From assembly GCA_965240465.1 (NCBI GenBank), contig OZ251219.1:384001-448000 (forward strand): a stretch of 64,000 nucleotides of DNA, in the 5' to 3' direction. The notes beneath the pieces are model-generated. The model was not told the origin of the DNA, did no database searches, and saw nothing but the letters and a program-made list of their open reading frames with translations. How positions within the stretch are numbered: position 1 is the first letter of the stretch; every line of letters starts with the position of its first letter. Position numbers and translations under genes: made by a program. Below are positions 5,568-16,529 of the stretch, piece after piece. The stretch comes from a bacterium (GTDB lineage Bacteria; SAR324; JACQKK01).

Positions 5568-6080
5568 TTACAAACCCACCACCTGCAACCGCAACCGTAG
5601 TAAATCCGGATTGTTAAATGCTCTGCTAACCTCTGATAGTCGTATCACCATCGGCACAGATGATGACTCTATCAAATAGATCATATAAACCACTTCGTCC
5701 CATGGTAGGGCATCTATCTGTACTTCTACGCTGGCAACGCTTCTTGTGTTGCTGGCTATTTCCTTTATTTTTACCTGCTCTTGCAATCCCAGCTGCCCTA
5801 CCAATAATTCCAAATGACTTAAAATATTTATCTCTCTCCTTTTGTTAACCAAAGCCTGTAAACGTTTCTTTTCAACCTTCAATTGTTGAGCACTGCGTAA
5901 ATTGAAACGCTGATTCTTCAATTCAACCTCCATATCGTGAGATCGCCTTAATACCCCGCCAATCGTCCAGTACATCAACAACCCCAACAACAATGCCGTC
6001 ATCCCTCCCAACAAAAATCTCTCCCGCCTAGATAAAGAATCCCAAAGTGCAACCACCACCTGCCAGCGTTCTCCATTCAT
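5568..6080 (-). CDS. gspM: Type II secretion protein GspM-like
   Basis: WDSLSRRERFLL then TM, coiled coil, ferredoxin-like C-terminus; overlaps the gspL stop. Confidence 0.75.
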   Translation of the reverse strand: MNGERWQVVVALWDSLSRRERFLLGGMTALLLGLLMYWTIGGVLRRSHDMEVELKNQRFNLRSAQQLKVEKKRLQALVNKRREINILSHLELLVGQLGLQEQVKIKEIASNTRSVASVEVQIDALPWDEVVYMIYLIESSSVPMVIRLSEVSRAFNNPDLLRLRLQVVGL

Positions 6081-8095
6081 TTCTTCTCCTCCTTTGATTC
6101 TTCCCTTACTGGATTGAATAATGATCCTTCAATTTGTATGGGATCAATCTTCAATTCTTTCAGCTGCAATATCTTATCACTTGGCTTAATAATCTTTGGC
6201 TCAGTGATATTCTTGGGAAGCTTTGGCTCAGTGATATTCTTGGGAAGCTTTGGCTCAGTGATATTCTTGGGAAGCTTTGGCTCAACCTTTAGATTACCGC
6301 CTGTTGGCTTATCCTCTGCTGATTTGCCTTCTGCTGATTTGCCCTCTGCTGATTTGTCTGCTGGCTTATCGTCTTCTAATTCCGTTTTAATTAATTTATC
6401 TCCTAAGTTGCTCTTTACTAATCTGGCACTGGGAGCAATCCCTGAACGATCCAAATTCAACTGAAACACGATCCCTTCCTTATTCCGACTATGAGTTAAA
6501 TTGGCTTTTGATCCAACCCATCCTGGTATTGCCATCAAGCTATCCCTTAGGAATTCTGAATCTGTATAGACCTTCACTCGCCCTCCCAGCACTAATTCTG
6601 ATCCTGTATAGCGAAAATTATCCACCTGAGTACCTATTCTTCCTTTGAGGGATTTTGATATTTCTTTAAATAGTCTAAGTACCTCATATTGATATATTCC
6701 CAGGAGCTCTACCTCCTTATATTGCGACCTTAGGTCGCCTACTTCCTTAGCTAGACGTCCCAGGGCATCATCTATTGCCAAGGGAGATAAATTTCCTTGC
6801 AAGCCCAGATTCTTTTGTACTTCGGTACTTAATATATCTAGCTTCTTTTGCCGACCTTGCAACTGATGACTTAAATTCTTCCCTCCAAAGAAACACACCA
6901 ACAGAAACAATCCCAAGGTGGTAGCCAAACCCACCCGATGCTCACGCAGCCAAGATGCCCACACAGCTTTACCCCGATAAAAACTAGTACCTGTCATCCC
7001 TATCATGGGGTGATTTCCCCTTACCAAGTACTTCAATAGGCCTTGTTGCTCTTTAATTTTTGTCTGCTTTGCCTTAGTATTTTTGGTTAGTTCCAATCCA
7101 TTTTCCAGGGACCATTGCAATTTATCAGCATGATCTCCATGCAACGATACCCGACAATTCTTAGCTATTCCCTGTAATCGCATCCAATTGACTACCGCCA
7201 GACAGACAGCTCTTAAATCCTTATCAGGTGGAGAATCTGCCAGCTGCGATGGCAAAACATAGCTCCTATACAAGCTTCCCGCCAAGATATGATTAACCAA
7301 ACATTCACCTTGACCTAGGTACACCTGTACGTATTCATTGGTTTTTGCTGCTGGCAAGCTTTCATATAATGCTTGTGCCGAGAAGGTCACTCTCCGTACA
7401 TGCAGCCTTTTTTCTTCACATACACCCACCCACTCCATCAATGGTTGCTTAGCCAGTAAGCGTACCAACACTTCGTTACTGCCTTCTTTGGCAGAAATCG
7501 GCAAAGAGGAAAAATCGTACACTAAATTATCTAGACCTTCTAATAGCTCGCTGTGCAGTTCAAAGCTGAGCACACTACGTATTTGATGTACCCTCTTCAC
7601 CCGTACCTCCACTACCCGATGGCGAACCCCAGTCGTTGCAACCACTAGTAGTAGACTGCCATGCGTCCACCCTAGGTAATTAATGAACGCTTTCAATCTA
7701 GCTGGAGAACACCATTCTAGTTCTGCCGATTTTTTATCATTATGTTGTTTCAGAGCAGATACTTCATTCACCGCAGTTTGAAACCGAAAACGAGCTCCTT
7801 CAGTAGAATCAAAATCAAGACTTTCAATCCTGTTTTTTGATACATACAAAATTCGCATACCTGCCCGCATCACCGGCTGAGATTCCGTACGCTGTTTAAT
7901 CACCTCTTTCCAGTGCTTAGCAAAGCTTTGCATCAGGCCATAGATTTTCAGCTTGGATATTTTTTGCAGACAAGATTGTCCCCGTGATTTTAATATCTCC
8001 CAAAACTTTCGCCCGTTTTTCCAAGAGGAAAGACAGAGGCCATTTTTTAGAATCTTGGCAAGGTTCTTTATTCTGTGGTGTCCTACAAATTTCAA
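6077..8095 (-). CDS. gspL: Type II secretion protein GspL/PilM-PilN-like, with repeat-rich C-terminal tail
   Basis: Actin-like cytoplasmic region (VLSFEL), single TM, coiled coil, PilN-like domain; position before gspM. Confidence 0.65.
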   Translation of the reverse strand: MKFVGHHRIKNLAKILKNGLCLSSWKNGRKFWEILKSRGQSCLQKISKLKIYGLMQSFAKHWKEVIKQRTESQPVMRAGMRILYVSKNRIESLDFDSTEGARFRFQTAVNEVSALKQHNDKKSAELEWCSPARLKAFINYLGWTHGSLLLVVATTGVRHRVVEVRVKRVHQIRSVLSFELHSELLEGLDNLVYDFSSLPISAKEGSNEVLVRLLAKQPLMEWVGVCEEKRLHVRRVTFSAQALYESLPAAKTNEYVQVYLGQGECLVNHILAGSLYRSYVLPSQLADSPPDKDLRAVCLAVVNWMRLQGIAKNCRVSLHGDHADKLQWSLENGLELTKNTKAKQTKIKEQQGLLKYLVRGNHPMIGMTGTSFYRGKAVWASWLREHRVGLATTLGLFLLVCFFGGKNLSHQLQGRQKKLDILSTEVQKNLGLQGNLSPLAIDDALGRLAKEVGDLRSQYKEVELLGIYQYEVLRLFKEISKSLKGRIGTQVDNFRYTGSELVLGGRVKVYTDSEFLRDSLMAIPGWVGSKANLTHSRNKEGIVFQLNLDRSGIAPSARLVKSNLGDKLIKTELEDDKPADKSAEGKSAEGKSAEDKPTGGNLKVEPKLPKNITEPKLPKNITEPKLPKNITEPKIIKPSDKILQLKELKIDPIQIEGSLFNPVREESKEEKK
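6194..6357. repeat. 27-bp repeat x3.4 (EPKLPKNIT) and 15-bp repeat x3 (KSAEG) in the gspL tail
   Basis: ctttggctcagtgatattcttgggaag at 6194, 6221, 6248; tctgctgatttg units at about 6312-6357. Confidence 0.95.
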
Positions 8096-8241: not shown

Positions 8242-8279
8242 AAAAGAAAAACCCCGCCCGGATGAAACCGAACAGGGTT
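8242..8279 (-). terminator. Probable rho-independent terminator after cfpA-1
   Basis: Minus strand AACCCTGTTCGG-tttcat-CCGGGCGGGGTT (12-bp stem with G-U pairs) followed by TTTCTTTT, about 40 nt after the stop. Confidence 0.75.
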
Positions 8280-8316: not shown

Positions 8317-10254
8317 TTATTCCTCTTCAGATACTCCTCCAGCAACAGCACTGGCAAATTCACCCGAGAAGTCATCACGAACAGTAGAACGACGCCTAGA
8401 GAAGGTAGCAAAAGCCTGATCTTGGAAGCCTGATGAAATAGAATACAAGAATTCATTTAACACATTGGCCATGTTCATCATGGTTGCCCCCTTGCGTTTG
8501 ATGGTTACGATATTGACATCTAAGACCAACCCAGCATTGATATGGAAAGGATTCACCTGAGCAGTAAAGCGGCGATATTCTTTGAAGAGGAATTCCAAGC
8601 GATTACTTAACAGTACTCCGACGGTATTATCGGGTCGGTTATCAAAGACGCGTGCGAGGATTGTTTCCATTGGAGCAAAGCGATTTTGTATCTCTCTAGT
8701 ACGATTTTGTAGGGTAGGATTAATGGCAGCAAATTCAGTTTCATCAGCTTCAACAAAGACCAGTTCGTTCCATTTTCTGCCTTTATCATCAGTATTATCG
8801 TCAGATTTTGCTTGGACATTTTCCAGTTCTCCTTCTTCTTCTTCTAAATCAAGTTCTTCTTCTTCTTCTCCTCCTAGTAGGTATTTCAACCAGCCGGGTC
8901 TTTTATCTTGCAATCGTCCTCCGAGCAAACGACTGGAAAAACCTTCCCAGTTTTCTTCATTTATATCTTTTAAGTACTCGTTGTAGACTTCATCTATGAC
9001 ATTCCACAGTTCAGTAATGGTGCGTTCAAATTCATCTAGTTGTTGAAGATAGGCTTCTTGCAAGGCTCGCAATTGAGCGGTGGTGTAATGAGTTAAGCGT
9101 AATTCATAGCGTTCATCTGGCAGGGATTCCTCAAAGGTGTTCTCATATTCACGAATAATGAGATGACGGGAGGATTTATAGTTCTCAATATGCTGGTAGC
9201 CCATACGGCTCCAATCCAACACATGAGTGATAGAGTTGACAGCTGTGTTCCAGCCTCGGTTACGTAAATCTTCGCTATTAAGGATTTTTTCAACATTAGC
9301 CCGGATATCTAGGGGATCTGCCATATAATCTGCACTCATTCCCTCTACCAGCTGGTAAAAGTGCTTAGGTAACATGTTGTAGCGAGGAGAATTGTCTTCT
9401 TTTTCATCGGACACATATTTTTCCATCATACTGATGCGTTCAAAGATCATTTCTTCTGGATTCATTTCTGGTTTACCCTCATCCACCAGTTCATAGTTGG
9501 CACGTTCTACTTCTCTGTCGATCACCTCCCTAATACGCTTGGCGGTCAATTCTTTGAGCAAGAATCCCGCTGTTGCCTGATAAGGATAGACACGACTAAT
9601 AAGTTCTGCATCCAAGATATTGAGTGCCAGTTTCAATTCATAGACGGTAGTGGGTCTGGCGACCGAGTCTCGGAAGGAGCATTTAGCGATGGCATAAGCA
9701 TTTTCGCCGCGTACAAAGGCACCCACATCGGTTTTGCGTCTGAGCAAAGAGTTAGTATGGGTTTCTATGTCATTAATTTCTCTTTGTAGGTGTCCTTGCA
9801 AGTGTCCATAAACATTGGCGATGGATTTTTCAACTTCTCCGGTATTGAATTTTTCTGCACCGGCAATGCGATCCAGCAGGAAAGATATTGGTCGTGGGCT
9901 ATAGCGATTAAGGTTGCGATGTTCTTCGCGATCGACCAGATCTCGGACTTTTTTTCCTAGTTCATCTTCCACAGTGGTGAGATAGCGGTTCACCATATTT
10001 TGCAACGCCTGATTGTAATAGCTGTGCAATTTGGATTTAACTGTAGCTGAGACGTTCAAGCGTCCCAGTATTTCTGGTGGCAATTTGGCGTGGATATGGT
10101 TGAGGATTTTGTCTACTTCTTCGTCCATGAAGAGGCGTCCTTCGGCGTATTCATCACGTCCATCACGCATGATACTATTTCTAGAACCTACCGCGCTGGG
10201 GATTTCGGGGTGCATCACATTAGGTCCGTGGACAAGTGCTATCTGTTTATCCAT
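8317..10254 (-). CDS. cfpA: Cytoplasmic filament protein CfpA homolog (copy 1, canonical-like)
   Basis: Motifs recalled from Treponema CfpA: PNV.HPE.PSAVGSRNS, KFNTGEVEKS, YGHLQGH, DVGAFVRGENAY, RNRG.NTA.NSIT, LPDERY, MANVLNEFL, FSRRRSTVR; AAGGA RBS upstream. Confidence 0.9.
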   Translation of the reverse strand: MDKQIALVHGPNVMHPEIPSAVGSRNSIMRDGRDEYAEGRLFMDEEVDKILNHIHAKLPPEILGRLNVSATVKSKLHSYYNQALQNMVNRYLTTVEDELGKKVRDLVDREEHRNLNRYSPRPISFLLDRIAGAEKFNTGEVEKSIANVYGHLQGHLQREINDIETHTNSLLRRKTDVGAFVRGENAYAIAKCSFRDSVARPTTVYELKLALNILDAELISRVYPYQATAGFLLKELTAKRIREVIDREVERANYELVDEGKPEMNPEEMIFERISMMEKYVSDEKEDNSPRYNMLPKHFYQLVEGMSADYMADPLDIRANVEKILNSEDLRNRGWNTAVNSITHVLDWSRMGYQHIENYKSSRHLIIREYENTFEESLPDERYELRLTHYTTAQLRALQEAYLQQLDEFERTITELWNVIDEVYNEYLKDINEENWEGFSSRLLGGRLQDKRPGWLKYLLGGEEEEELDLEEEEGELENVQAKSDDNTDDKGRKWNELVFVEADETEFAAINPTLQNRTREIQNRFAPMETILARVFDNRPDNTVGVLLSNRLEFLFKEYRRFTAQVNPFHINAGLVLDVNIVTIKRKGATMMNMANVLNEFLYSISSGFQDQAFATFSRRRSTVRDDFSGEFASAVAGGVSEEE

Positions 10255-10389: not shown

Positions 10390-12993
10390 TTAAGATTTTT
10401 TATTATAGCCATTTCTTTTGACTACATATTGGGCTATCGCCAATCGTGCTACTGGTATTCCCTGTGGCCTAGTAGCAACGAAATGCACCTTACTTTGGAA
10501 TGCAAACTCCATATTTTTAGTATCCTGGATGTTATCACTAGAGATACCAATTTGTAGATCAGGACGAGTTAATCTGCCCAAGTGAACCACAATGGATATT
10601 AATTCTTTTACTGGAGTAGAAAAAATTTCAAATGGATTGCCTTGCCAGATGTCATACTGAGTAAAAGCAGGCAAGAAAACATTCAAATCTTCGATAGTTA
10701 TTCCCGAGGCATTTTGAGTAAGTTTCATGGCATCTATCAGGAAGAAATCGGATTGCTTGGCTAAGTGGCCAGCCATCATGGCAGCTGCGGGTAGTTCAAT
10801 CACGGATCCGATGCGAAAATTGAAGGGCAATTCATTTAGTTTCCATTCTTTAAGCAGATCATCGATTACATTACGCATACCATCGATCACCGTACTTTCT
10901 ATGCTACGCCCGTATCGCAAGAAACGAAGTTCCGCATCTCCGACCACTCCTGGCACACACACACCTAGACAAACTTTTTTGTTTTTACTAATTTCATAGG
11001 CTGCCTTCAGCAAGGGGATTAATTGAAGCGTGTATAAATGCGGGTAATTTATTCCCATTCGACTACCACGCATACCCATCAAGGGATTAATGCTCTGCAT
11101 TTGATTTATTAAACTTAAAAGGCACTCCTCGCTGAGGTCGTCATATTTGCGAGCCACTTTTTCTACAAGTTTTTGGAGTTTTTCCTTATCAGAAGGGAAG
11201 AACGTGGTAGGCGGACCCTCCAACAGTCGTATCACCAACTGATTACCATCCAGCTTATTCAGCAATTCCTCAAACAGGGGCTGGATGGTTTCAGAAAATT
11301 GATCAGCAACCTGGTCAAAATGTTTGGGAGTATTCACCAGCAGTAGTAGCTCCTGAAATGGCTCCAGAGCAATAGAATCCTTGATAACCAAATCCATTGG
11401 ACACATGCCAATCCCCTGAGAGCCCAAACGCATGGCTGTGTCAATATCTGACAATTTAGACATCAAAGATGTAACGCGAAGATCACATGTTAGGTCAGAA
11501 ATATTTTTCACGTATTCTTCCAGCCCATTTTTGGATGTATCAGGGAAGATGAGATTAGCTTCCCCGATCCATATGGTGGGACTGGTATAAGTGGGTGCTT
11601 CCACCGAAATCGTATCCATTTCATTGATGCGATGTCCTCCTAGGGTAACATAGCCATCACCGAATTCAGCATCTGGGAATAGTACACAAGTTTTTTGCAA
11701 GCTGCGAGAAACCACTGGTGCATGAGAAGAATATCCACCTTCCGAGGCAATCACTCCGCGGCCCAGTTCAATGGATTCCACATCTTCTACATCAGTATGA
11801 GGCACCGCTAGGATCAGGGAAGGGGTTTGCCCTGCGAGTAGCATGTTGCGATGTTCGGCTAGTAATTTCTTAGTACTAAAACAGATTTTTCCCACCACCG
11901 CTCCCGGAGAACCGGTTAATCCACCAACGATTTTCTCAAGATTTTCAGCACTGGCATAATCAATAATCGGATGCAGTAGATCCTGAATTTGCTTGGGAGG
12001 TACAGACATAGCTAATTTTTCTTTGCTTATCAATCCTTTGGCGTATATATCCAACAGGGTACGGATTTCGGCTTGGGTAGATTTTTCTTCTACCGGCGAT
12101 TGATCCAACAACCACACCTTCTTTTCCTCAATGATAAATTTAATCTTGCGGATATCTAGATATTTTTCTTCCAGTTGTGTAGTTAACGCCTTTAGCTGCT
12201 CAAAATAATGGTTGTCTATTTTAGACAGCGGCATACCTTTATCCACGTCGATATCAAATTCGTTGTGCCCAAAGATTCCGTGTATTTGGTCTTTTCCAGT
12301 GACAATATCGCGAGAATAAATATATCCATTATAAGAATGCTCGCCGCTATTGCCATAGACCATGGCTTGTACTATCAACCCGGCTTCAATATCCTCATTC
12401 ACCCCACCTTCAGTATATTTAGACGCCATAGAGGTCAGTACTAGTTGCAGTTGCTGATAGCCGTCCTGAGGGAAATCGGGGACTAATTGTTTCCGACAAA
12501 GCTGGCAGATTTCTTGGATTGACCCTTGGGAAGATTTTTTAATTTCATCAAAATCCTCGCTATTTTTGTTCATAAAGCGGCTACCGATGGAACGCATTAG
12601 GTAGAAATACTCACCGTAGGCAAATTCACTGCCACAGCAATCAGAAAAACCCTTCACCACTTCATCGCTTAACCCCAGTGCATGGATGGAAGGCATAGTA
12701 ACAATTTGAATGGAAGGAGAAAGTACTACCTTGAACAGCATGGGATTGGCTGAAGAATTAAATTTTTTGTCAATACTACCCTCTATTTTTTCAACCGCTT
12801 CCTTGATGGCATCGATAGAGAAATCTTCTGCAAAATTTTTACCCCAAATCACCTCAGACGGAATTATAAATCCCGGTGAAATGGGAGCTTTGAGTGCTGC
12901 AAGCTCCATGAGATTTTTTCCACGAATACCGATCTGGTCACGAAGGTCAGTGCCTTCTTGGTATTCATTTTCGCTAAAGTGTAATATGTTCAT
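10390..12993 (-). CDS. Pyruvate,phosphate dikinase-like protein, probably catalytically degenerate
   Basis: PPDK architecture: PGFII, VQAMVYGN, LLHP, GSPGAVVGKI, GGYSSHAPVVSR (His424), IRLL, NPLMGMRGSR, IELP; many catalytic residues are substituted. Confidence 0.9.
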   Translation of the reverse strand: MNILHFSENEYQEGTDLRDQIGIRGKNLMELAALKAPISPGFIIPSEVIWGKNFAEDFSIDAIKEAVEKIEGSIDKKFNSSANPMLFKVVLSPSIQIVTMPSIHALGLSDEVVKGFSDCCGSEFAYGEYFYLMRSIGSRFMNKNSEDFDEIKKSSQGSIQEICQLCRKQLVPDFPQDGYQQLQLVLTSMASKYTEGGVNEDIEAGLIVQAMVYGNSGEHSYNGYIYSRDIVTGKDQIHGIFGHNEFDIDVDKGMPLSKIDNHYFEQLKALTTQLEEKYLDIRKIKFIIEEKKVWLLDQSPVEEKSTQAEIRTLLDIYAKGLISKEKLAMSVPPKQIQDLLHPIIDYASAENLEKIVGGLTGSPGAVVGKICFSTKKLLAEHRNMLLAGQTPSLILAVPHTDVEDVESIELGRGVIASEGGYSSHAPVVSRSLQKTCVLFPDAEFGDGYVTLGGHRINEMDTISVEAPTYTSPTIWIGEANLIFPDTSKNGLEEYVKNISDLTCDLRVTSLMSKLSDIDTAMRLGSQGIGMCPMDLVIKDSIALEPFQELLLLVNTPKHFDQVADQFSETIQPLFEELLNKLDGNQLVIRLLEGPPTTFFPSDKEKLQKLVEKVARKYDDLSEECLLSLINQMQSINPLMGMRGSRMGINYPHLYTLQLIPLLKAAYEISKNKKVCLGVCVPGVVGDAELRFLRYGRSIESTVIDGMRNVIDDLLKEWKLNELPFNFRIGSVIELPAAAMMAGHLAKQSDFFLIDAMKLTQNASGITIEDLNVFLPAFTQYDIWQGNPFEIFSTPVKELISIVVHLGRLTRPDLQIGISSDNIQDTKNMEFAFQSKVHFVATRPQGIPVARLAIAQYVVKRNGYNKKS

Positions 12994-13102: not shown

Positions 13103-13432
13103 CTAAAATAGAGGCAGAATCTTGTTCACATCTCTCTTGATGAAATTCTCATAACGCTGACTAGCCCCTTCAAATAGATAGCGTTTTAACTCAGCCACCC
13201 CTTTTATATCCTCACCGGACACGCTAATAAGGATTACATCTCCGTGTTTAACTTTTCCCCACTTAAAAAGAGCGTTGATGTTATTAATTTTTTGTCCATC
13301 ATGGAAAACATGTACATCTAGCCCAGCATATTCTTTTCTATAACTTTCAATGATATTTTTCCAAGCTTCCACATTTCCGTTGTGGAACAGTTCGTTGGTG
13401 ACTTGCACACTATATTTTGGTGTTACACGCAT
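13103..13432 (-). CDS. Small CfpA-cluster protein with apparent HPr-like fold
   Basis: VQVTNELFH ... DVHVFHDGQKIN ... VKHGDVILISVSGED parallels HPr V.NE.GLH ... DG..VN ... V..GD.I.I...G.D; in-frame stop just upstream of the ATG. Confidence 0.75.
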   Translation of the reverse strand: MRVTPKYSVQVTNELFHNGNVEAWKNIIESYRKEYAGLDVHVFHDGQKINNINALFKWGKVKHGDVILISVSGEDIKGVAELKRYLFEGASQRYENFIKRDVNKILPLF

Positions 13433-13580: not shown

Positions 13581-14087
13581 TTATAGGGTGGCCTCGCTTG
13601 CCTTTAAGCTACCATTAAATATTTGTGCTAGGACCCGAGCTGCTTTTTTTCCTTGCTTATTGTCTTTTTTTCTAGATTTAACATAAATCACCATTAATTC
13701 TTCATCATAAACATCCTGGACTCTTTCCCAGTGGTCATTGTTTTTAGGATTAATCAAGGTAACACCCTGTTGCGGATGATGATATGCCAATATAATATCT
13801 AAATCTTTCCAATCCAAGGTAGTTTTAGAAATGCCTTTGAAATCAGAGAATCTAATCGGCAGGTTTAGGGAAAGGTTTGCGTAGTTGGAGCGTTCGATCA
13901 ACACTGAATTGAGGATAGGACCGATTTGGGCTTTGTTTATTTGTCGTTCGTCCTCCAGTTTCATAACGATGTCAGCTAAGTTTTTCCCTTCTTTCATGCT
14001 TTTAATAATACCAGTCACCACTCGGAGGTGTTCCACTGATTTATTGAAGCCTGTAAGCGTACTTAGAGACAAGTAATCGTTAATCAT
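13581..14087 (-). CDS. Hypothetical protein of the CfpA cluster
   Basis: Open frame, co-oriented between cfpA-2 and the HPr-like gene; likely start MINDY at 14087; contains YHHPQQG.TLINPKN. Confidence 0.7.
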   Translation of the reverse strand: MINDYLSLSTLTGFNKSVEHLRVVTGIIKSMKEGKNLADIVMKLEDERQINKAQIGPILNSVLIERSNYANLSLNLPIRFSDFKGISKTTLDWKDLDIILAYHHPQQGVTLINPKNNDHWERVQDVYDEELMVIYVKSRKKDNKQGKKAARVLAQIFNGSLKASEATL

Positions 14088-14253
14088 AAGGTTGTCAATT
14101 TCCCTAAAAAGCAATAAACCTGCCTGAAAAAGGTTTTAGGTCCCTTTTTCGATCAGGTTATTGAAGAAGTTCATAAGTGCCTATTTCTTCTATTTTTTTT
14201 GAGTTGATGTTTTAGAATTTTTTTATCGGCAAAAGATTAACCTTTATCGGGCA

Positions 14254-16077
14254 TTAACCTTTAGCATCCGCGCTTTGTTCAAATACCTGAGAGAGTATTC
14301 TTTCTCCTATGACATTGGAGTGTCTATTTACACGGGCGACATGAGGATCAGTAAAGCCTTTGGAAATGAGGGTAAAGAATTGATTTAGGACATCACTCAT
14401 AGCATCTATGGTAACTCGGCGTCGTTTTACGCTGGTGATGCGGATTTCCAACAAGACACCCGGCTGTACTTGATAAGGATTAGCCTGTTCATTAAAGGAG
14501 ACGACACTATCCTCTAAGAAGTTGATACGATTTTCGGTAATTTCACGCTGTTCTGGGTGCCTGATACTGAAAGCATCTATCAATTGAGAGCGCAGGTATC
14601 GGAAGCGGATTTTGAAATCTTGGGTAAAATCTTCGTAGGTGCGGTGTATTTCTTCCATTTTACTGAGTTTACGTCGTACGAAAGTAATTTCATCCCATTG
14701 TTTTACTTGTTTTACAGGTTCTATAACACTTTCAAAGCGTCCGAGTGTACCTTTGACTACATCATTCCAGCCGTTCACATTTTGGGCACGCCTTTCTTCT
14801 TCACAGATGTCCAGTACGACGTTCTGCAAGTTGGAGATTTCTCTTTGCAATTCCAGCAATTGAGCGGTATAGGCGGATTTCAGTTCTCTAATTTGAAGGG
14901 CTCCGAGATAACGCATATCTATTTCGAAATGTTCATCTGGTAATAGGCGGGGGTTATTTTCTTCGTATTCACGAATAATCACATGTCGTGCCAGCTTATG
15001 ATTTTCTATTTGCTGGTAGCCCATTTGGCTATTATCCAGAATGGAAGTGATTGTGTTAACTGCGGTATTCCAGCCTCGGTTGCGCAGGGATTCTTTATCA
15101 AACAATTGATATAGACCTGCCGAGAAGGCTAGCGGATCATAATCAATGTCATTTCGGTTAATTTCGTGTTGTAGCATACTGATGCGTTCCATTAATTGTT
15201 CAGAGAACATTTTCTTACTTTTCTTGGAGCCGTGTCCTTCCACGAAGTTTTCCACATGTTTAATTTTTTCCATGACGGTTTCTTCAGGAGATAAGGACTC
15301 GTTTCCTTCTTTTTCAAGTTGTTCATTGATGGCATCGATTTCTTTATCTACTAGTTTTTGGATGTGCTGAGCAACAATGGTTTTCACCATAATTTGTGAC
15401 ACTATTTGGTAGCCATGGACGGAGCTAATGAGTTCAGAATCAAGGATATTGATGGAGAGTTTAATATCCACCACCTCTTCTGGTTTTCTATAGTTGTCTC
15501 TGATAGAGCCCTGTACTAGTCCGTAGCTATTGTTGCCGCTGATGAACTTGGCGATATCGGCTTGGCGAGTAAGGATACCGACTGTAGAAACCTCGCATTC
15601 ATTGATAGAGCGATGTATATGGCCTTGCAAGTGTCCCATGATGTTGACCATGGATTTTTCCACTTCGGCAGTGTTGAACAGGTTGGGATCACCTATTTGA
15701 TTAACCAACTCAACGATCTCGCGTGAGGTATATCGTAGGAGACCGCGATGTTCTTCTTTGTCAATCAGGTCGCGGACCTTCTTGCTCATTTCATCTTCGC
15801 TGGTGGTCAGGTAGCGGTTGACCATGTTTTGCATGGCTTGGTTGAAATAATCATGCAAATAAGACTTTATATTTCCCTGTACGGTCAGATCGTCTAGTAC
15901 TTCAGGGGGTAGACGGCTCTGGATATGGTTGAGTATTTTTTCTACTTCTTCATCAATAACCAATCTGGATTCGGTATATTCATCTCGTCGGTCGCGGTTT
16001 AGACTGTTGCGGGAGCCAACTGCACTGGGGACCTCTGGGTGCACATAATTAGGACCTTTTCTAAAATCACTAGACAT
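14254..16077 (-). CDS. cfpA: Cytoplasmic filament protein CfpA homolog (copy 2, divergent)
   Basis: PNYVHPEVPSAVGSRNS, QNMVNRYLTT, MGHLQGHI, NILDSELIS, RNRGWNTAVNTITSILD, LPDE; collinear with 8317..10254. Confidence 0.88.
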   Translation of the reverse strand: MSSDFRKGPNYVHPEVPSAVGSRNSLNRDRRDEYTESRLVIDEEVEKILNHIQSRLPPEVLDDLTVQGNIKSYLHDYFNQAMQNMVNRYLTTSEDEMSKKVRDLIDKEEHRGLLRYTSREIVELVNQIGDPNLFNTAEVEKSMVNIMGHLQGHIHRSINECEVSTVGILTRQADIAKFISGNNSYGLVQGSIRDNYRKPEEVVDIKLSINILDSELISSVHGYQIVSQIMVKTIVAQHIQKLVDKEIDAINEQLEKEGNESLSPEETVMEKIKHVENFVEGHGSKKSKKMFSEQLMERISMLQHEINRNDIDYDPLAFSAGLYQLFDKESLRNRGWNTAVNTITSILDNSQMGYQQIENHKLARHVIIREYEENNPRLLPDEHFEIDMRYLGALQIRELKSAYTAQLLELQREISNLQNVVLDICEEERRAQNVNGWNDVVKGTLGRFESVIEPVKQVKQWDEITFVRRKLSKMEEIHRTYEDFTQDFKIRFRYLRSQLIDAFSIRHPEQREITENRINFLEDSVVSFNEQANPYQVQPGVLLEIRITSVKRRRVTIDAMSDVLNQFFTLISKGFTDPHVARVNRHSNVIGERILSQVFEQSADAKG

Positions 16078-16440: not shown

Positions 16441-16529
16441 CCGCACCTTCTCCACCGCACCTTCTCCACCGCACCTTCTCCACCGCACCTTCTCCACCGC
16501 ACCTTCTCCACCGCACCTTCGCACCTTCT
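16441..16529. repeat. 14-bp tandem repeat (ccgcaccttctcca), about 5.7 copies, in the divergent cfpA-2/ugd intergenic region
   Basis: Directly visible. Confidence 0.95.

Follow-up and report, generated by a model that had tools for sequence, protein, structure and literature searches.

HPr, a small protein of the phosphotransferase system (PTS), meets its partners through a face formed by its loop/helix 1 and helix 2 regions; its key residues are numbered His15, Arg17 and Ser46. A second point of reference is CfpA, which is regarded as a spirochaete protein. Treponemal CfpA filaments have a history of decades, yet their partners and mode of regulation are, to our knowledge, not established. 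In T. pallidum the gene order is TP0748, TP0747, TP0746. Here we describe a cfpA locus from outside the spirochaetes. It lies in a 64,000-nt stretch (the window) of contig OZ251219.1 from assembly GCA_965240465.1, a SAR324-type genome of 1.6 Mb, and its central element is a 109-aa gene on the minus strand (13103..13432), between cfpA and a gene of the pyruvate phosphate dikinase (PPDK) family. We find that this gene is the detached second half of a cfpA-linked protein with two predicted HPr-fold domains, which we call X. Tentatively, at a probability of roughly 40%, we read its product as the HPr-type docking module of a CfpA/PPDK-paralog module.

Some of the neighbours of cfpA have appeared in expression work on Treponema. 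The T. denticola genes TDE0842 (cfpA), TDE0843 (given as 'conserved hypothetical') and TDE0844 (given as 'pyruvate phosphate dikinase, putative') are co-repressed according to Table 5 of PMC3914990, and the expression of cfpA and ppdK is treated in PMC8525777. By gene position only, X can be equated with TDE0843 and with TP0747 of T. pallidum. In the literature covered, with subscription papers on cfpA outside its scope, TDE0843 was found only under that designation in the one expression table, TP0747 was not found, and nothing was found that links CfpA with HPr or a phosphocarrier in spirochetes. In the window, the genes follow one another on the minus strand as cfpA, the N-terminal half of X, its C-terminal half, the PPDK-like gene and a second cfpA:

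14254..16077, minus strand: upstream cfpA, 607 aa, NF040882 570 bits (cut-off 500)
13581..14087, minus strand: N-terminal half of X, four helices and the first HPr-fold domain, from a structure model and identity to the relative P0121
13433..13580, no strand: non-coding spacer of 148 nt, in place of the Pro/Ala/Lys-rich linker of relatives, from three-frame translations
13103..13432, minus strand: C-terminal domain of X with a predicted HPr fold, here a separate 109-aa open reading frame (ORF) with the V.NELFHNGNVEAWK motif
10390..12993, minus strand: cfpA-linked PPDK paralog, 867 aa, from family scores and alignments, His424 kept
8317..10254, minus strand: second cfpA, 645 aa, 3' of the PPDK paralog, NF040882 686 bits (cut-off 500)

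A PPDK-like neighbour and a link to CfpA were named in the initial annotation of this DNA, which was made from the sequence alone, and the family profile scores bear these neighbours out. The 109-aa ORF opens with an ATG, has an in-frame stop two codons 5' of it and is a genuine gene. All strings quoted in that annotation (YSVQVTNELFH, DVHVFHDGQKIN and VKHGDVILISVSGED) lie inside it, with the highlighted His as residue 17 (codon 13382-13384), within the motif NELFHNGNVEAWK. In a word-indexed search with the encoded domain (hereafter the C-domain), 203 candidates of 59-191 aa came up, and 201 of them had E<=0.01; among cluster representatives, searched exhaustively, 119 reached E<=0.001. Most of these have 300-360 aa and match at their C terminus. 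Their usual layout is a helical N terminus, a first predicted HPr-fold domain lacking the His, a disordered linker of 29-132 aa rich in Pro, Ala, Lys and Gln, and a second such domain carrying the His. The invariant motif NELFHNGNVEAWK and the C-terminal L.LF that mark the family are both present in the window's C-domain. The missing first part is encoded upstream, in a 177-aa ORF (13581..14114) that matches the first 150 residues of P0121, a relative of 350 aa, at 50% identity (E 8e-52). Although the ORF list starts it at a TTG at 14114, translation more likely begins at the ATG at 14087, which corresponds to the first residues of relatives (MINDYLSL).

How common is such a split? The comparison took in the best 80 loci of named genome records, and both halves of X are present in 78 of them. 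The halves are fused in 76 of these 78, counting L074 and L075, in which a stop precedes the true start. The exceptions are L013, from a congener of the window's genome, and L036, whose record has frame breaks in neighbouring genes as well. Translating the window and L013 in three frames, beside the fused loci L014, L019 and L022, gives the same picture in both congeners: two ORFs in different frames, ~150 nt apart, with the DNA between them non-coding. In this genus the linker has been replaced by a non-coding spacer and the halves are separate cistrons. The single chain typical of X is thus absent here and both of its halves are present, as expected of a split member of the family. The ORF at 13103..13432 is the detached second half of a two-HPr-fold protein and not the cryptic stand-alone HPr that had first been seen in it; the stand-alone forms of the domain are distant paralogs, to which we return below.

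A gene split in a 1.6-Mb genome could also be read as a break, with the ORF left behind as a functionless, decaying fragment of a reduced genome. We consider this very improbable, because the congener shows the same split, the ORF starts at an ATG of its own just past a stop, and its divergence is that of a constrained gene. Between the two congeners, synonymous divergence (pS) is saturated at 0.73-0.78 across the four genes compared (0.73 for the C-terminal half), and nonsynonymous divergence (pN) is 0.22 for the PPDK-like gene, 0.21 for the N-terminal half, 0.17 for cfpA and only 0.078 for the C-terminal half, the most constrained of the four. Low pN at saturated pS means that both halves are maintained under purifying selection, and their persistence as separate genes suggests that the tether between them is dispensable.

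The fold of the C-domain was predicted with AlphaFold2 from a 26-sequence alignment (mean predicted local distance difference test score, pLDDT, 80.3; predicted template modelling score, pTM, 0.77). The predicted model has the beta-alpha-beta-beta-alpha-beta-alpha open-faced sandwich of HPr plus a short extra helix (DSSP: E7-10, H19-34, E39-44, E47-49, H52-56, E66-73, H79-89). In a Foldseek search of the PDB, ranks 1-27 are all HPr or Crh, at E 5.9e-3 to 3.1e-2 and a target-normalised template modelling (TM) score of 0.48-0.66; there was no match at E<=0.001. VIA-align, which is independent of Foldseek, placed HPr in the top four of 48,161 representative chains (Z 7.8-6.8, root-mean-square deviation (rmsd) 2.1-2.9, 78-80 residues aligned out of 84-88), and in a second look the first 29 rows were HPr (Z 7.9-6.6). 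The HPr-like fold proposed in the initial annotation is therefore what the model predicts. The N-terminal half is modelled with greater confidence (pLDDT 93.1, pTM 0.86) as four helices (residues 6-75) followed by an HPr-like domain (residues 78-170), and its structural match to HPr is the stronger of the two: VIA-align gave HPr and NPr at Z 9.8, 9.7, 8.3, 7.8 and 7.6 (rmsd 1.7-2.2, 79-81 residues aligned), with the first unrelated chain at Z 5.3, and the best Foldseek match was the HPr 7x7h_B (target-normalised TM 0.77). With both halves matching HPr in structure, X is, on these models, a tandem HPr-fold protein. The first HPr-fold domain lacks a His in its beta1-alpha1 loop (sequence NLPIRFSD). 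It has a conserved motif of its own, YHHP..G....NPKN, at residues 105-125 of the 177-aa ORF, covering the hairpin of strands 2 and 3 together with the helix 2 N-cap in the model, in HPr the region of Ser46.

At the sequence level, HPr is not recognisable. The C-domain matches no Pfam family, PF00381 included, at E<=0.1 or at E<=10; hhalign of the C-domain family against HPr alignments of relatives (15 and 19 sequences) gave probabilities of 1.2% and 1.9%, with 0.2% for the N-terminal half against HPr and 0.4% for the N-terminal half against the C-domain; and no HPr was among the 7 matches of a PDB sequence profile search at E<=10. At hhalign probabilities below 2%, the likeness to HPr sequence motifs on which the first interpretation was built has no statistical support, and what speaks for HPr is the fold and the genomic context. 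Several other candidates were set aside. The best PDB profile match, the Phytophthora RxLR effector 5zc3_B (E 2.8e-4), covers 45 residues around helix 1; it and folliculin (E 0.06), neither of which shares any context, were taken as chance or compositional matches. The NCBIfam family 'bilirubin reductase' scored 17.6 bits against a cut-off of 750. In the ESM Atlas, the third match of the C-domain was an 'HPr domain-containing protein' cluster (0.81), a mere lead, and the phage DUF6433 clusters matched by the N-terminal half (0.95) were not used, with recognition at 1994, below the 2300 mark, and no Pfam match at E<=10.

These values leave room for another view, that the HPr likeness is convergence on a common small alpha/beta sandwich that binds some other ligand, be it a nucleotide, a metabolite or a nucleic acid. 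It can draw on the hhalign probabilities and on the C-domain Z values of 6.6-7.9, which lie in the range below 8 where, by the tool's own caution, a common arrangement may be reflected; the VIA-align list for the C-domain also holds, besides NPr at Z 6.1, the C-terminal domains of aIF2-alpha at Z 5.4-6.2 and ferredoxin-like designs at about 5. Convergence would nevertheless have to account for HPr coming first by two independent aligners and in both halves, for the 4.5 Z units by which the HPr match of the N-terminal half exceeds the first unrelated chain, and for a genomic partner drawn from the Enzyme I/PPDK family. We regard it as improbable.

If the fold is that of HPr, what has become of its active site? 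In the C-domain model, His17 sits in the beta1-alpha1 loop, two residues before helix 1 starts by DSSP (residue 19). Aligned ranges that pair model residues 3-5 with HPr 1-2 put it within about one residue of His15, a placement drawn from ranges and not from a residue-level superposition; going by these ranges and DSSP, the His15 equivalent may well be kept, as had been proposed. His17 is present in 26/26 aligned close homologues, in all 80 loci and in 50 of the 52 full-length cluster representatives, so that its conservation among homologues, a point on which the first interpretation depended, is borne out. The equivalents of Arg17 and Ser46, which that interpretation had already given as lost, are indeed absent: His17 is followed by N-G-N, and the N-cap region of helix 2 reads N-N-I-N, with no conserved Ser. 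Around the His, conservation is dense. N13, N20 and E22 are found in 52/52 full-length representatives, and 27 of the 109 positions are invariant among 77 distinct C-domains. The invariant positions cluster at 11-24 (the end of strand 1, the loop and the first turn of helix 1), at 55-62 (the end of helix 2 and the next loop in the model), at 82-91 and in the C-terminal L.LF. Across phyla, identity to the window's proteins is 61-69% for the C-domain, 27-40% for the N-terminal half and 29-36% for the PPDK paralog.

The neighbourhood of X is conserved as well. The closest loci carry record titles of the SAR324 cluster, Candidatus Lambdaproteobacteria or 'Deltaproteobacteria', and the remaining ones are Spirochaetota: Leptospirales, Spirochaetales, Treponema, Alkalispirochaeta, Oceanispirochaeta and Salinispira. 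Upstream of the C-domain, no more than 2 kb away, there is a cfpA gene in 72/72 testable loci, the other 8 of the 80 being cut by a contig end. A PPDK-like gene starts within 800 nt downstream in 70/80 loci, in two phyla (Spirochaetota and one SAR324 family); the linkage to cfpA and to a gene of the PEP-utiliser (phosphoenolpyruvate-utilising) family on which the first interpretation had built is thus conserved across both. In seven further loci (L028, L032, L033, L043, L056, L059, L067), Leptonema- and Leptospiraceae-labelled, other genes stand between and the PPDK-like gene is 5.3-6.2 kb downstream; in L048 and L083, both Leptonemataceae-labelled, there is no PPDK paralog within 8 kb, and one further locus is cut by a contig end. 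A second CfpA match 3' of the PPDK-like gene, as in the window, recurs in L013 and L015-L026, all SAR324-labelled. The window's genome has a third cfpA, its best-scoring one (877 bits), away from the X locus (G000:C1:111673-113490). Within the window's family, 17 of 18 genomes have X, the one without it being 61% complete, and in the sister family 0/22 do; cfpA is in 18/18 and 0/22, respectively.

This pattern brings in a serious rival: X could be a CfpA-binding adaptor that bridges or anchors the filament ribbon, with the PPDK paralog a separate passenger of the operon. The linkage of X to cfpA is absolute and that to the paralog is 70/80, with the paralog displaced, or missing within 8 kb, in 9/79 loci; X and cfpA match in presence and absence between two sister families; and in SAR324 the C-domain is highly constrained while the catalytic motifs of the paralog decay. 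On the other hand, a pure adaptor leaves unexplained why two HPr folds should stand beside the only enzyme family known to dock HPr, an unlikely coincidence, and why the paralog is adjacent in two phyla with its His motif invariant. We hold the adaptor to be somewhat unlikely, serious as it is, and continue to prefer a docking module that faces the paralog.

The adjacent enzyme deserves the same scrutiny. The window's paralog aligns end to end with a solved PPDK (Flaveria 5jvn, E 1.8e-79, residues 6-858) and keeps the phospho-His motif GGYSSHAPVVSR (His424, codon 11722-11724), which is invariant in 38/38 linked copies. It scores only 404.5 bits with the PPDK family TIGR01828 (cut-off 843.45) and its PEP-site motifs are replaced, and on both counts it falls outside PPDK proper. 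All five SAR324-family genomes checked have two PPDK-family genes, the cfpA-linked one at 403-514 bits and another elsewhere at 750-1053 bits, which exceeds the cut-off in 1/5 genomes; four of the five spirochaete genomes checked have a canonical PPDK of 960-1422 bits, always over the cut-off, besides the linked copy at 626-718 bits. The other, near-canonical PPDK of the window's genome (G000:C1:1245705-1247978) scores 750 bits, below the cut-off, does not match the profile before position 106 and has an unusual N terminus in the alignment. In a quick IQ-TREE tree, from which the row canon_SPI_G041 was left out (an ORF in the wrong frame, branch length 9.7), seven canonical PPDKs stand apart from the 38 linked copies (Shimodaira-Hasegawa-like approximate likelihood ratio, SH-aLRT, 99), and the linked copies from SAR324 group as a single long-stemmed clade. 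By sequence comparison, the cfpA-linked gene is a paralog distinct from the housekeeping PPDK.

In SAR324, the PEP site of this paralog has decayed. Among columns invariant in the seven canonical PPDKs, 105 fall in the PEP domain, of which the spirochaete linked copies keep 83%, the SAR324 linked copies 52% and the window 40%; no such difference between the groups is seen among the 39 columns of the His domain (49-51%) or the 23 of the N-terminal domain (58-61%). The window has CPMDLVI for CRTEHMF, DAMKLTQ for GTNDLTQ, ATRP for CSP and SSDNI for GEHGG, and the spirochaete linked copies retain all four canonical motifs in a 13-sequence alignment; in PPDKs these four stretches contain the PEP-site and Mg-site residues. 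PF02896 (PEP-utilizers_C) scores fall accordingly from 212-242 bits in spirochaete copies to 143 in a SAR324 copy and 63.6 in the window. PF01326 (PPDK_N) scores 17-31 bits in all linked copies and 61 in a canonical one, and the nucleotide-domain motifs of the window's paralog are degenerate. The linked paralog of SAR324 looks like a pseudo-enzyme.

The PTS core was surveyed alongside. Scored with X among 41 genomes of relatives, canonical HPr is present in 35 and was found neither in the window's genome (G000) nor in G001; Enzyme I over the TIGR01417 cut-off was found in G004 and G009, and none in G000, G001 and G008. X and its His are thus kept with or without a PTS core, and in the window's genome, with no Enzyme I over the cut-off and no HPr found, no phosphoryl source is obvious.

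These data bear on the possibility that X is a working phosphocarrier in this very genome, with His17 phosphorylated from His424 and its phospho-state controlling CfpA. The HPr fold, the His17 of all 80 loci and the invariant phospho-His motif of the paralog are what such a carrier would need, and spirochaete paralogs, with an intact PEP domain and a barely recognisable nucleotide domain, hold just the set for the Enzyme I half-reaction. Against it stand the replaced PEP-site motifs and the 63.6-bit PF02896 match of the window's paralog, the want of an obvious phosphoryl source and the missing equivalent of Arg17 of HPr. We think it rather unlikely, and the PEP-driven private relay that the initial annotation drew for this genome is doubtful for the same reason, its proposed donor having lost the PEP-site motifs. 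Of that interpretation as a whole, the fold, the conservation of His17 and the linkage are supported, and the sequence likeness, the stand-alone status and, for this genome, the PEP-driven relay are not.

We return to the docking module. To the observed gene and split, the predicted folds, the conservation, the synteny and the decay of the paralog, this reading adds three things that we infer: that X binds, which protein it binds and whether phosphate is passed on. The second domain of X would act like HPr, as a small docking module, and its docking face would comprise the His loop with helix 1 and helix 2, where the two most conserved patches lie. The most likely partner would be the neighbouring PPDK paralog, met at its swivelling His domain, in a pair of the Enzyme I/HPr type, and docking would tie the paralog to the CfpA filament. 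What favours an HPr-type docking module is that two HPr folds beside a family of HPr-docking enzymes, in two phyla, are unlikely to be a coincidence. In spirochaetes, the paralog, with its PEP domain and His kept and a nucleotide domain that is hard to recognise, looks like a functional counterpart of Enzyme I, and a passage of phosphate from PEP by way of its His to His17 would be plausible. In the SAR324-type genome, where the PEP site has decayed and there is no Enzyme I or HPr, yet His17 and His424 are invariant, the pair would most likely persist as a phospho-independent binding or regulatory complex. Judged from sequence, then, phosphotransfer is plausible in spirochaetes and doubtful here. 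A bolder version would make this a three-part PTS-style relay, in which phosphate from PEP reaches the second HPr-fold domain by way of a PPDK-derived, Enzyme I-like His kinase, and X in turn controls the assembly or anchoring of the CfpA filament, with the SAR324 relay decayed to a pseudo-enzyme scaffold that retains docking contacts only; we judge it unlikely.

Several observations weigh against the docking reading. Sequence-level homology goes undetected by hhalign both between HPr and the C-domain and between the two halves of X, and the Z values of the C-domain all stay below 8. The loop of His17 is modelled with low confidence (mean pLDDT 61 for residues 11-20), and the equivalence to His15 comes from aligned ranges. 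Two divergent full-length members have Ser or Gln at the position of His17, and most of the stand-alone C-domain paralogs (~30-40% identity) lack the His. X is linked more tightly to cfpA than to the PPDK paralog, so CfpA could be its real partner. Finally, His17 and the His of the paralog are equally invariant in SAR324 despite the decay of the PEP site, which argues against PEP-driven transfer as the explanation of their conservation. The stand-alone paralogs occur in other settings: in relatives (L116, L117 and L118, here at 6037-6405) they lie between a purH-like gene and ubiE, near an SLT-LysM protein and a class A penicillin-binding protein (PBP1), with no PTS or PPDK context.

Two further features lie beyond the second cfpA:

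8250..8279, minus strand: terminator-like hairpin of 12 pairs with a T run, 3' of the second cfpA, on weak evidence
6077..8095, minus strand: 672-aa ORF without a Pfam family, a conserved downstream neighbour in SAR324-labelled loci

The hairpin may mark the end of the transcription unit; in a promoter and terminator scan of the region, site counts were not above those of shuffled sequences. The 672-aa ORF has matches of 23-49% identity downstream in L013, L015-L017, L019, L020 and L022-L026. It contains a perfect tandem repeat (27 nt x 3.4, at 6194-6284) that encodes repeated PKLPKNITE, and a second perfect tandem repeat (14 nt x 5.7, at 16441-16520) lies in the gap 5' of the upstream cfpA.

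What would such a module mean? A tandem HPr-fold protein beside a non-canonical PPDK paralog offers a testable hypothesis for how metabolism is coupled to the filament, and if the relay were true, a PTS-style relay would be wired to the cytoskeleton rather than to sugar transport, in Spirochaetota and one SAR324 family. For metabolic reconstructions of treponemes it matters that the PPDK annotation next to cfpA belongs to a separate paralog. Its occurrence in SAR324 extends the module beyond spirochaetes and supplies two natural experiments, a gene divided at its linker and a PEP site that has decayed while the His residues stay.

Finally, we would like to place X and its neighbours among the systems they resemble. 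With HPr (PtsH, PF00381), NPr (PtsO) and Crh, proteins of ~85 residues, the C-domain shares the same predicted open sandwich, 77-85 residues superposing at an rmsd of 2.1-3.2, and, in the predicted model, the His in the loop before helix 1. Unlike them, it has no profile-level similarity and no equivalents of Arg17 or Ser46, adds a C-terminal helix and the invariant C-terminal L.LF, and is usually the second domain of a 300-360-aa protein; X also occurs in genomes that lack Enzyme I and HPr, and beside canonical HPr in others. The Enzyme I/HPr pair is a likeness of gene context, since in both cases the gene for an HPr-fold protein adjoins that of a PEP-utiliser-family member whose phospho-His domain is mobile. 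The partner here, however, is a full-length PPDK paralog (TIGR01828 403-718 bits, cut-off 843; TIGR01417 37-113 bits, cut-off 342), presumably without the helical HPr-binding subdomain of Enzyme I. In contrast to the PTS, no Enzyme II genes are involved, cfpA is the constant neighbour, and the PEP site is degenerate in SAR324. Solved PPDKs (5jvn, 1kbl, 1vbg) align end to end with the neighbour, whose phospho-His motif is kept, but the linked paralogs form a clade separate from canonical PPDK and have lost the PEP-site motifs in SAR324. The closest parallel in gene order is that of the cfpA loci of Treponema, where cfpA, X and the PPDK-like gene follow one another just as here (in the Treponema-labelled L079 and L092). 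The locus described here departs from them in its split gene, in the second cfpA after the paralog, in the deeper decay of that paralog and in its SAR324-type host.

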